A model generated the notes under the pieces. The model worked only from the letters and a program-made list of their open reading frames with translations, was not told where the DNA came from and did no database searches. A program made the position numbers and the translations under genes. Shown piece after piece: positions 58,414 through 60,987 of a stretch of 64,000 nt of DNA; the first letter of the stretch is position 1, and every line of letters begins with the position of its first letter. This stretch comes from Candidatus Spongiihabitans thiooxidans (GTDB lineage Bacteria; Pseudomonadota; Gammaproteobacteria; Arenicellales; Poriferihabitantaceae), in the NCBI GenBank assembly GCA_001543005.1, contig LFLB01000003.1:221797-285796 (forward strand). The letters are read 5' to 3'.

Positions 58414-60987
58414 ATGCTGCCCCCCCCCCCCCCCCCCCCCCCCCCCCCCCCGCAAAATAGCAAACGGCGGGTATTAGTCGCCGCTAAACTCTTTGCGCTA
58501 TGCGCGCTGAGCCTGTTCCTACTGACCGCTTGCGGCGGTGGTGGCGGTGGTGGCGGCGGATCGTCCCCGCCGGGGACCCCGAACCCGCCGCCACCACCGA
58601 CTACTCAAACATGTTCTGACGGCACGGTAATACCAATCGGTGATACCTGCCCGCCGCCGCCGACCGAGTACGCCAGGAGGAAGAGTGGATTTGAATCATC
58701 CGATGAATACAATGTGAGCTATACGAGTGGAACTGATTTTCATCTGGACAGAATCAACGCCGCGGCCGCTTATGCGCGCGGCGCCACGGGCCAGGGCGAG
58801 ACCATTGCCATTGTGGACAGCGGCATTCGCGACACCCACCGGGAGTTATCCGGTAGCGGCAAAGTTACCAAGGTGACTCAGAGTGGGTATAACCCGGACG
58901 ATGATGACAAATTCCACGGCACCTTTGTCGCCGCGCTTGCCGTCGCCAATCGTGATGGTGCCACAGATAGCACGGGCTTGAATATGCACGGCGTGGCTTT
59001 CGACGCGAGTGTTGCCTTCGGCGAAATTCGCTTGGGGACATCGGACGGCATTTATCGCCCGTTCAGGCTGGAAAACTTCTCCAGCTTGGATGACCGGAGT
59101 AACGCGGCGTTTTACGGCGGCATTATCGAGTTTGCGCGAACCGCAGGCGCATCCATTATCAACCTGAGTTTTGGGGTGAACGGCGCGATCTCGGAATACG
59201 ACCGGCGGGAACTTCGCAACCGCTTCGGGCATACCGCCGCGACCCTGGCGCAAGCGAGTACCGCGGATGCCGACAAAACAATCCTCGTATGGGCGGCCGG
59301 TAACGCGGCCGGACATGTATTGCCGGACGGCAGCCGACCGATTTTCGATTCGCCGGAGATCGGGTCCGGCTTGGGCGCCTATTTCCCGGAATTACAAAGC
59401 CATATCCTCGCTGTGGTGGCATTGGACCAGGATGGCAGCATCGCCAGTTATTCCAACCGCTGCGGCATTGCCAAAGATTTTTGCCTGGCCGCGCCCGGCT
59501 CCAACATCGTTTCGGCATTGAGCAGTGGTGACAATGATTATGGCGCGGGCTTTTCCGGCACCTCCTTCGCCGCGCCAATAGTCAGCGGCTCGCTCGCCCT
59601 GTTGCGTCAGTATTTTCGCGGACAGCTCGGCAATACCGAATTGGTCACCCGCCTGCTCGCCACCGCCAACCGCGACGGCAGATACGCCAACTCCGACACT
59701 TACGGCCACGGCTTGGTGGACTTGGACACCGCCACCGCGCCGGTCGGGCGGTTGATGACTGGTTTGCCCGGCGACCTCGACAGCCATCCGTTCGCCGGTA
59801 GCGGCATCGCATTATCCGGTGCCGCCTTCGGCTCGTCACTGCAAAGCGCACTGGCGGATGTGGAAGTCGCCGCTTTCGATTCCCTCGGCGCGCCGTTCTT
59901 TCAATCAGCGGCGGCATGGGTCACGCAACCCGCGCAGGAACGCGGCGGCGGTTTCGGCAGTGGCACATACCGTGAACAGCGGGAGTTGTCGTTAGCGGTA
60001 GCGGCCTCGCCCTATCAACACAATGGCGCAACATTGTCGCTGGGATTTAACGGCGACGGCGCGATAAGCGATGCGCGTTTTTCTTTCGCCGACGGCTGGT
60101 GGTTTTCTTATGGCGATCACGGCGGCCGGGCGCTTGGTCTGTATAACCAGTCGTTTGACAAGCCCCCGAAGCATCACTTAAACCCCGCTTTTCAGAGTCT
60201 GCAAAGCGGGCCTGTCGAGAGCGGCGCACAGCGTTTCAGCGACTCGCTTGCGTTCGCCGCGCCGTATTTATCGCTGGTGCGCGACGGGCCGGGCATTGGC
60301 TGGTCACATTCGCGTGCCGGCGGCGGGCGTTTCGGCTTCGCGCTGATGCACGGCGCACCACAGTTCAATGGCCAACAAAACCCCGGCGGCAAGCGTGGCA
60401 TCGGTGCGTTGCTGGACCTGACCATTAACGGCAGGCTGTCGCTGCAAGCCGGTGCGGTGCGCGAAGCCGATGGCTTCCTCGGTGCGCGACCGCAAGGCGC
60501 ACTCGGTCAGGCACAAGGCGCGACCGCGTTCGTCGGCCTCAACGGCGCGTGGCGGCTGGGCGGCGGCTGGCGCATGCTGGCGTCGGCCTACCTCGGCCGC
60601 ACGCGAACCCAGGTTGACGGCACCGGCTTGCTGCACGATGCCGGCGCCATCCTCAGCAGTGCGTTCAGCATTGGCGCCGCGCGCGCTTCGCTGTGGCGGC
60701 GCAACGATTGGTTTGGCCTGCGCCTGTCGCAGCCACTGCGCGTGGAGAACGGCAGCCTGAGGTTGCGCCTCCCCACCGGACGCACCACATCCCGCGAAGT
60801 CGTGCAGGCTGACCACCAGGTGAACCTGGCCCCGACCGGGCGCAACCTGCAACTCGAAACCACCTACCATATACCCTTCGCCGGCGGCGCGCTAAAAACC
60901 AGTATGGGGGCGGAACATCACCCGCAACACGACCGCGCAAGTGGCATCCGCCCGTTCATGCGCCTGTCTTTTGAGCGGCGTTTTTAG
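58414..60987 (+). CDS. Subtilisin (S8) lipoprotein autotransporter, NalP/SphB1-like architecture
   Basis: After the ATG comes a poly-Pro stretch, then a signal peptide with lipobox LLTAC, then Gly and Pro runs. The catalytic triad blocks are IAIVDSGI (Asp), HGTFVAA (His) and GTSFAAPIVSG (Ser). The C-terminal ~270 aa is beta-strand-rich and ends ...RLSFERRF. GC content is visibly much higher than in the flanks. Confidence 0.85.
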   Translation: MLPPPPPPPPPPPQNSKRRVLVAAKLFALCALSLFLLTACGGGGGGGGGSSPPGTPNPPPPPTTQTCSDGTVIPIGDTCPPPPTEYARRKSGFESSDEYNVSYTSGTDFHLDRINAAAAYARGATGQGETIAIVDSGIRDTHRELSGSGKVTKVTQSGYNPDDDDKFHGTFVAALAVANRDGATDSTGLNMHGVAFDASVAFGEIRLGTSDGIYRPFRLENFSSLDDRSNAAFYGGIIEFARTAGASIINLSFGVNGAISEYDRRELRNRFGHTAATLAQASTADADKTILVWAAGNAAGHVLPDGSRPIFDSPEIGSGLGAYFPELQSHILAVVALDQDGSIASYSNRCGIAKDFCLAAPGSNIVSALSSGDNDYGAGFSGTSFAAPIVSGSLALLRQYFRGQLGNTELVTRLLATANRDGRYANSDTYGHGLVDLDTATAPVGRLMTGLPGDLDSHPFAGSGIALSGAAFGSSLQSALADVEVAAFDSLGAPFFQSAAAWVTQPAQERGGGFGSGTYREQRELSLAVAASPYQHNGATLSLGFNGDGAISDARFSFADGWWFSYGDHGGRALGLYNQSFDKPPKHHLNPAFQSLQSGPVESGAQRFSDSLAFAAPYLSLVRDGPGIGWSHSRAGGGRFGFALMHGAPQFNGQQNPGGKRGIGALLDLTINGRLSLQAGAVREADGFLGARPQGALGQAQGATAFVGLNGAWRLGGGWRMLASAYLGRTRTQVDGTGLLHDAGAILSSAFSIGAARASLWRRNDWFGLRLSQPLRVENGSLRLRLPTGRTTSREVVQADHQVNLAPTGRNLQLETTYHIPFAGGALKTSMGAEHHPQHDRASGIRPFMRLSFERRF
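58420..58451 (+). repeat. Homopolymeric tract of 32 C, starting 4 nt after the autotransporter ATG
   Basis: Counted directly: C at every position from 58420 to 58451. In the present frame it encodes 11 consecutive Pro. Confidence 0.95.

Follow-up and report, generated by a model that had tools for sequence, protein, structure and literature searches.

A 64,000-nt stretch of contig LFLB01000003.1 from Candidatus Spongiihabitans thiooxidans (positions 221,797 to 285,796; hereafter the window) carries a run of 32 consecutive cytosines at the 5' end of an open reading frame (ORF; 58414-60987, + strand), whose translation is an 857-residue putative S8 lipoprotein with a C-terminal barrel. This C32 run is most likely a hypermutable simple-sequence repeat of the slipped-strand type, and comparison with related sequences most likely places the locus in the known class of repeat-tract contingency loci, which mediate phase variation. 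Each of the three reading frames of the window contains an ATG upstream of the tract, and tract length differed among close relatives. On balance, and with limited confidence, we favour the interpretation that slipped-strand changes in tract length shift the ORF among these alternative starts and alter the number of N-terminal prolines, leading to unstable, heritable differences in the amount of protease.

A 32-nt poly-C tract at the 5' end of the protease gene

Direct reading of the + strand confirmed the original prediction that an ATG (58414-58416) and a CTG codon (58417-58419) are followed by exactly 32 C (58420-58451). A scan of the whole window, which has a GC content of 48.4% and contains no N, identified this run as the sole homopolymer longer than 7 nt, the rest being A/T runs of 7; at 48% GC, a run of this length is far from what chance would give. 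As had been predicted, the tract together with the G that follows it encodes 11 prolines (Pro3-Pro13, codons 3-13), and the translated ORF begins M-L-P×11-QNSKRRVLVAAKLFALCALSLFLLTAC-G×9. The run of nine glycines was also anticipated and is real; its position is 58534-58560 (+ strand), approximately 6 nt upstream of where it had been placed, and it is encoded by mixed GGC, GGT and GGA codons and not by a homopolymer. With 11 consecutive prolines, the ORF contains a stalling motif for elongation factor P (EF-P), taken as three or more consecutive prolines. Polyproline runs stall translation in an EF-P-dependent manner, and a strong dependence on EF-P is plausible for 11 prolines at codons 3-13.

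No in-frame ATG, GTG or TTG was found between the tract and the lipobox in the window, in agreement with the earlier claim that the protein has no other start before its lipoprotein signal peptide on that side of the tract, and the same was true of the closest orthologues (loci L011, L076 and L077). Thus, with no canonical in-frame start available there, the tract must be translated in the window and in these orthologues.

Start codons in three reading frames precede the tract

Three ATGs on the + strand lie 29, 16 and 6 nt upstream of the tract, one per frame, and each is open into the tract. At the assembled length of 32 nt (2 modulo 3), the ATG at 58414-58416 is in frame and gives ML-P11-QNSKRR. 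The ATG at 58391-58393 (leader MIINNAHICC-Pn; P10 as read in the window) is in frame with the ORF at tract lengths of 0 modulo 3 (e.g. 30 or 33), and the ATG at 58404-58406 (leader MPTYAA-Pn; likewise P10 as read) at lengths of 1 modulo 3 (e.g. 31 or 34). Since there is one open ATG per frame, every tract length keeps an in-frame start for the full-length ORF: according to the computed frames, a change of ±1 nt in the tract alters which ATG is in frame and never leaves the ORF without a start. The original prediction held that the protein would be lost at every tract length except those of 2 modulo 3. This does not stand: it had overlooked the ATGs of the other two frames (58391 and 58404), each of which stays open across the tract and provides an in-frame start for one of the other two length classes. 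Shuffling the upstream 60-150 nt gave three-frame ATG coverage in 0.07-0.8% of cases, and 1.9% of random positions in the window had it, which corresponds to a chance estimate of p about 0.001-0.02.

An alignment of six cassettes revealed a conserved 5' cassette upstream of the tract (58314-58419, + strand) with an invariant ATGATAATTAAC and an invariant ATGCT. Conservation covered ~100 nt upstream plus the signal-peptide coding region, with GCAAAATA on the far side of the tract, and the cassette was kept in the window, L011, L076, L163, L164 and, in part, L077, the proteins of which are just 52-77% identical. The ATG of the MIIN leader (58391 in the window) was invariant in all six cassettes and was the in-frame start in L163 (C25) and L164/L165 (C16), reading MIINPVHNAVIT-Pn. 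The ATGCT that includes the homologue of the ATG at 58414 was the site of the in-frame start in L011, L076 and L077. The MIIN and ML starts are therefore each in frame in different relatives, a point in favour of a switch among starts. In L011, L076 and L077 the leader is of the form MF(K/T)ML, with two ATGs in one frame and MIIN in a second; the ATG homologous to 58404 shares the frame of the ML ATG in these loci (MFKML). The spacer in the window is 1 nt longer than theirs, which puts the ATG at 58404 in the third frame. In L163 and L164, ATGCTG is followed by TAA and only one frame has a start.

Similar alternation was found in a paralogous cassette of the form ATGAAACACATCAGCAAGCAGCATGTTCGCAAAACTG-Cn-GAAATAATA, in which L158, L161 and L162 were in frame with the ATG of an MFAKL leader, L159 was in frame with MKHISKQHVRKTA, and L160 (C20) was in frame only with ATGs 113-128 nt upstream. 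ATGs were present in two frames in L011, L076, L010 and L159 and in three frames in L158, L160, L161 and L162, where the third-frame ATGs are those 113-128 nt upstream.

Shine-Dalgarno-like motifs preceded 5 of 33 long ORFs when the first ATG was taken as the start (a crude assumption), which suggests that initiation in this genome is largely independent of such motifs. Because they are rare here, the lack of one neither excludes nor favours any of the three ATGs. With respect to RNA structure, no Rfam family matched the 5' region, and at E ≤ 1 there were only spurious miRNA matches on the glycine-coding GGN run. Predicted folding of 58340-58520 and 58385-58585 was no more stable than that of shuffled sequences (z-scores of -0.35 and +0.46). 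A long-range C:G helix between the tract and the downstream G-rich glycine-coding run was considered and dropped, as folding leaves the C tract unpaired with that run.

Tract length is polymorphic among close relatives

A search at E ≤ 1e-5 returned 1607 homologues of the protease, the closest of which came from metagenome-assembled genomes (MAGs) of sponge symbionts: Candidatus Spongiihabitans, Ca. Poriferihabitaceae, Arenicellales and a Methylococcales symbiont of Iophon. The S8 lipoprotein family is multi-copy within genomes. Many of these relatives are represented by megabase-scale contigs from PacBio HiFi sponge metagenomes assembled with metaMDBG (for the method, see PMC12988363).

At the site homologous to the C32 of the window, we found C25 in L163 (a circular Ca. 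Spongiihabitans genome at 3864× coverage), C16 in L164/L165 from the same sample as L163 (ERZ26167708), C14 in L011 and C7 in L076; L077 has no tract and reads CAATCCTCACGCA. In the paralogous cassette, five syntenic genomes from one sponge metagenome (ERZ25069810) carried C13, C15, C16, C19 and C20, which cover all three phases. Alleles of different length were otherwise nearly identical around the tract: L158 (C19) and L162 (C16) were 100% identical across the 300 nt downstream of it, and L158 and L160 (C20) were 100% identical across the 300 nt upstream. A third cassette contained C8-C11 in L003, L004 and L005 and was degenerate in L006 and L014. Within protein clusters at 90% identity, the length of the polyproline stretch ranged from 3 to 6, and the leader alternated between MFAKL- and MKHISKQHVRKTA-. 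Overall, at least three divergent 5' cassettes of the family, from several genera, have a C tract at this position.

As read from these assemblies, the tract is real and hypervariable; its recurrence at one homologous codon position in independent assemblies indicates that it is not an assembly artefact. A comparison of tract length in related strains and MAGs had been put forward as a check on the original prediction of a slipped-strand locus, and the check came out positively and supports the prediction: length was polymorphic, including among near-identical alleles and within a single metagenome sample, with C0/7/14/16/25/32 in one cassette type and C12-C20 in another. In a JGI metagenome scan, all relatives were distant (30-38% identity) and the window cassette gained no new allele; a C or G run of at least 8 nt was found in 0 of 80 marine-metagenome homologous loci (30-38% identity to the window protein), searched across the whole locus.

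Several related observations were made in the course of this comparison. On account of the tract, automated gene callers often shortened genes of this family to a downstream Met, dropping the signal peptide even where an in-frame upstream ATG was present (P0121, P0122, P0126, P0031, P0010 and others; L161 is an example), and database entries consequently under-report the lipoprotein leader and the polyproline stretch. N-terminally truncated calls were considered as a sign of an OFF phase and rejected: L161 (C13) has a truncated call and is in frame with the MFAKL ATG, so such calls are no evidence of OFF. In L003 and L005 (and in degenerate form in L006 and L014; ~3990-4010), the tract follows a conserved -10-like motif, TATAGT(T), and is located ~35-40 nt upstream of a plausible GTG start (VDSIAKFFPLC...LLTAC); judging from this arrangement, the tract of the third cassette may act in the promoter or 5' untranslated region and not in the ORF. 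L164 and L165 also contain, in tandem downstream (5013-5021), a second S8 paralogue with a C9 of its own at the same leader position (MFAKLQPS-PPP-RNNTR) and with an alternative ATG (MEHVRKITTIA) in another frame. In L018 (a Ca. Azotimanducaceae MAG; 3913-3927), a G15 run encodes the glycine linker directly after the lipobox cysteine, the frame is broken (TAG TAG), and the ORF resumes in the +1 frame. This is apparently either a second kind of homopolymer switch, OFF in the assembly, or a homopolymer miscall.

The tract encodes part of a putative lipoprotein signal peptide

Beyond the prolines, the translated signal peptide continues (58453-58533, + strand) with the n-region QNSKRR, a hydrophobic core and a lipobox LTAC (L37-T38-A39-C40). 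Signal peptidase II would cleave before Cys40. Because the polyproline stretch lies ahead of the n-region, within the cleaved signal peptide, the mature protein should be the same at every tract length, as far as can be judged from the lipobox. The glycine-rich linker behind the lipobox cysteine is general in the family and ordinary for its lipoproteins. Residues 126-433 (58789-59712, + strand) match Peptidase_S8 (subtilase; Pfam PF00082, E=2.3e-34), and in an alignment of 30 homologues L37, C40, H168, N297 and S384 were invariant and D135 near-invariant. A profile search of the PDB returned subtilases only, with 8e7f ('Extracellular serine protease') as the top match, and the NCBIfam matches, to mycosin and EprS, were limited to the protease domain and far below cut-offs (EprS E=1.2e-27).

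For the last ~260 residues, AlphaFold2 predicts short helices and then a β-barrel (helical linker and outer-membrane barrel of ~13 DSSP strands, 60211-60984, + strand, ending ...FERRF), with a predicted local distance difference test score of 88 over residues 441-857 and of 72 when the barrel is modelled by itself. The C-terminal residue is F, which is typical of outer-membrane proteins. This domain was matched by neither Pfam (PF03797; E ≤ 10) nor NCBIfam (searched with 16 members of the family) nor the PDB profile search. Two Foldseek searches gave weak matches to many outer-membrane barrels (template modelling (TM) scores of 0.3-0.45); with the barrel-only model, the top match was the β-domain of EspP, itself weak (E=3e-3, TM 0.39), and BrkA and AaaA ranked lower, among porins. 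In this model the architecture resembles that of NalP and SphB1, and membership of the barrel in the type Va autotransporters is not established by sequence models or by Foldseek. The earlier description of the protein as a NalP/SphB1-like lipoprotein autotransporter fits the S8 domain with its conserved catalytic triad, the lipobox and the predicted C-terminal β-barrel ending in F; the assignment of the barrel to an autotransporter family is not supported, as no sequence model recognises it.

Comparison with known phase-variable systems

In protein architecture and type of repeat, the system nearest to the present one is Neisseria meningitidis NalP (AspA); in switch logic, it is Haemophilus influenzae licA. 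The statement in the original prediction that NalP is phase-variable through a coding poly-C tract is correct: the NalP tract ranges from 6 to 15 nt and the gene is ON at 7, 10 or 13 (PMC3723659). Both NalP and the window protein have a signal peptide of the lipoprotein type, an S8 passenger and, at the C-terminus, an outer-membrane β-barrel (predicted for the window protein), and the 5' coding region of both genes contains a poly-C that varies among strains. In contrast to the strict ON of NalP with a tract of 6-15 nt, the tract here is 32 nt (7-25 nt in relatives), with starts in all three frames; it lies at codons 3-13, ahead of the n-region of the signal peptide; the barrel is unrecognised by autotransporter sequence models; and the host is an uncultured sponge symbiont and not a human pathogen.

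The licA gene (lic1) has three initiation codons in two frames upstream of its CAAT repeats (PMC2212159). As in licA, a hypermutable repeat separates several initiation codons from the body of the ORF, and the repeat number picks the in-frame start, if any; L011, L076 and L077 repeat the licA layout itself, in which two ATGs share a frame and a third lies in another. The repeat differs, however, being a mononucleotide C here and a CAAT tetranucleotide in licA, and it encodes polyproline in a cleaved signal peptide; moreover, starts are found in two of three frames in licA and in all three in the window. By analogy, the locus would resemble the several-start switch of licA more than a strict ON/OFF switch of the NalP type.

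In Bordetella SphB1, Pseudomonas EprS and Serratia Ssp, too, an S8 passenger is joined to a C-terminal barrel; SphB1 is, in addition, a lipoprotein. Matches to these proteins were limited to the protease domain and far below family cut-offs. We know of no repeat-tract phase variation in SphB1, EprS or Ssp and found none, although no search was aimed at it.

Proposed mechanism and alternative explanations

In the interpretation that we favour, slipped-strand mispairing at replication would add or remove C residues. Each change of ±1 nt would bring a different ATG among 58391, 58404 and 58414 into phase with the ORF, and each change of ±3 nt would add or remove one proline. Tract length would thereby select among the leaders MIINNAHICC-Pn, MPTYAA-Pn and ML-Pn, probably with differing translation efficiency, rather than destroy the protein. 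Such a translational switch of the licA type, in which expression is strong, weak or absent according to the start, would act on a protein with the domain order of NalP. As the polyproline stretch would be removed by signal peptidase II before Cys40, the mature protease would be the same in every state. The tract, its frames, the alternative ATGs and the length polymorphism among close relatives are read directly from the sequences; a switching rate, the usage of the individual ATGs, the expression levels and a biological role, for example to vary a surface protease exposed to host or phage, are inferences.

A bolder version of this interpretation, which we regard as tentative and on the unlikely side, is that the locus works as a 'frame-proof' dial and not as an ON/OFF switch. 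With an ATG in every frame, every tract length would yield a full-length pre-protein with an identical mature form, and expression would be set in graded steps, the level depending on three starts of different strength and on the number of prolines, which would slow early elongation or hamper the signal peptide in an EF-P-dependent way. We know of no description of a three-frame 'volume control' of this kind that is based on a homopolymer in a cleaved signal peptide.

Several points weigh against a switch among alternative starts. The closest orthologues have ATGs in only two of three frames, and L163 and L164 in only one; the presence of starts in all three frames of the window may therefore have arisen by accident in this lineage, through a 1-nt indel. 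A sigma-70 consensus promoter was not found in a scan of 58050-58520, and the mRNA may not include all three ATGs; the eleven N-terminal prolines may cause the in-frame state itself to be poorly translated. Long homopolymer lengths in HiFi assemblies can be off by 1-2 nt, so that the exact length of C32 is uncertain by ~1-2 nt and the phase of any single assembly, the window included, is uncertain as well. Length variation was read from assembled genomes, and high-frequency reversible switching within a clone would be an extrapolation from it.

Among the other explanations, a strict binary ON/OFF switch, in which only the ATG at 58414 is functional and any length other than 2 modulo 3 gives a truncated peptide and no protease, is unlikely in our judgement. 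NalP works in this manner (PMC3723659), the four closest orthologues (the window, L011, L076 and L077) are all in frame with the ML ATG, and the one-frame start of L163/L164 means that a binary switch exists within the family. On the other hand, the window also has ATGs in its other two frames, both with an open path through the tract, L163/L164 start in frame at the MIIN ATG, which does not vary among the cassettes, natural alleles of the paralogous cassette are in frame with either of two ATGs (L158 vs L159), and no Shine-Dalgarno motif sets the ATG at 58414 apart. It is less probable still that the tract is a neutral, tolerated hotspot without a regulatory role, in a dispensable cleaved stretch and perhaps in a lineage with weak mismatch repair. 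The tract lies in a part that would be removed from the mature protein, it is lost or interrupted in L077, L002, L006 and L014, and its lengths are widely spread with no obvious mode, all of which would fit neutrality. However, as the sole long homopolymer in 64 kb it does not reflect a genome-wide expansion of homopolymers; at least three divergent 5' cassettes, from several genera, have it at an identical position; start codons in multiple frames beside it are commoner than chance; and a change of ±1 nt is not neutral for the reading frame.

Two further explanations place the effect outside translation, or deny the tract altogether. Length could tune transcription through a G-quadruplex formed by the G32 of the template strand or through promoter-proximal geometry. 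A run of 32 G is long enough in principle for a G-quadruplex, and in the third cassette (L003 and L005; degenerate in L006 and L014) the tract follows TATAGT(T), upstream of a GTG, and is perhaps untranslated. We nevertheless consider action at the level of DNA or transcription very improbable in the window, where, as in its orthologues, there is no start downstream and the tract thus lies within the ORF; in addition, no consensus promoter was found in the scan, and the folding z-scores (-0.35 and +0.46) were no better than those of shuffles. Hardly credible, finally, is an assembly or sequencing artefact, under which the real genome would have a far shorter homopolymer or none. Of the errors that remain in HiFi data, those in long homopolymers are the chief class, and the relatives were assembled with metaMDBG; yet the tract has unique flanks homologous to relatives on both sides, the ORF is kept in frame, and independent assemblies, including the 3864× circular genome, carry 14-25 nt at the exact site, whereas an artefact would not recur at one orthologous codon position.

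Significance of the tract in a sponge symbiont

Repeat-tract phase variation is regarded as characteristic of pathogens adapted to a host, among them Neisseria, Haemophilus, Campylobacter and Bordetella. The present locus is unusual in its host group, in its tract length (32 nt, and 25 nt in the 3864× genome), in the location of the tract at the extreme N-terminus of a cleaved lipoprotein signal peptide, and in having starts in all three frames. It places the same device on a surface protease family of uncultured sponge symbionts (Ca. Spongiihabitans/Poriferihabitaceae), in which co-resident strains differ in tract length. The finding suggests that, under the same fluctuating selection (host recognition or phage), the symbionts of early-branching animals have arrived at the same solution. 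A full-text literature search found no paper combining phase variation with sponge symbionts. In practical terms, tract length is usable as a strain marker, and the tract lends itself to population analysis at read level in the HiFi sponge metagenomes that already exist. With its 32 nt and its three-frame starts, it also provides a good test case for the limits of homopolymer switches and of N-terminal polyproline.

Mosaic alleles and genomic neighbourhood

The co-resident Ca. Spongiihabitans strains represented by L163 and L164 (900-4400 in both) were 99-100% identical upstream of the gene and in its first ~150 nt and 82-100% identical in the barrel; their protease halves were 44-69% identical with many gaps. 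This mosaic pattern suggests recombinational replacement of the exposed domain between conserved cassettes. If the tract sets expression in graded steps, this control seems to go together with mosaic exchange of the exposed half of the protease, flanked by conserved 5' and 3' cassettes.

Acyl-CoA metabolism genes flank the protease gene of the window (55674-58055 and 62214-63884); the set consists of a MerR regulator, an acyl-CoA dehydrogenase of 612 residues, an enoyl-CoA hydratase and a fragment of an AMP-binding ligase. At the paralogous loci L158-L162, the neighbours are an HMG-CoA-lyase-like gene with DUF2889 on one side and an AMP-binding gene on the other, so that position is partly conserved. 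Directly downstream of the protease gene, on the - strand, are genes for an MqsA antitoxin (61134-61607) and an MqsR toxin (61617-61964). The orthologous locus L076 also has an MqsA gene downstream, together with an IS1595-family transposase.

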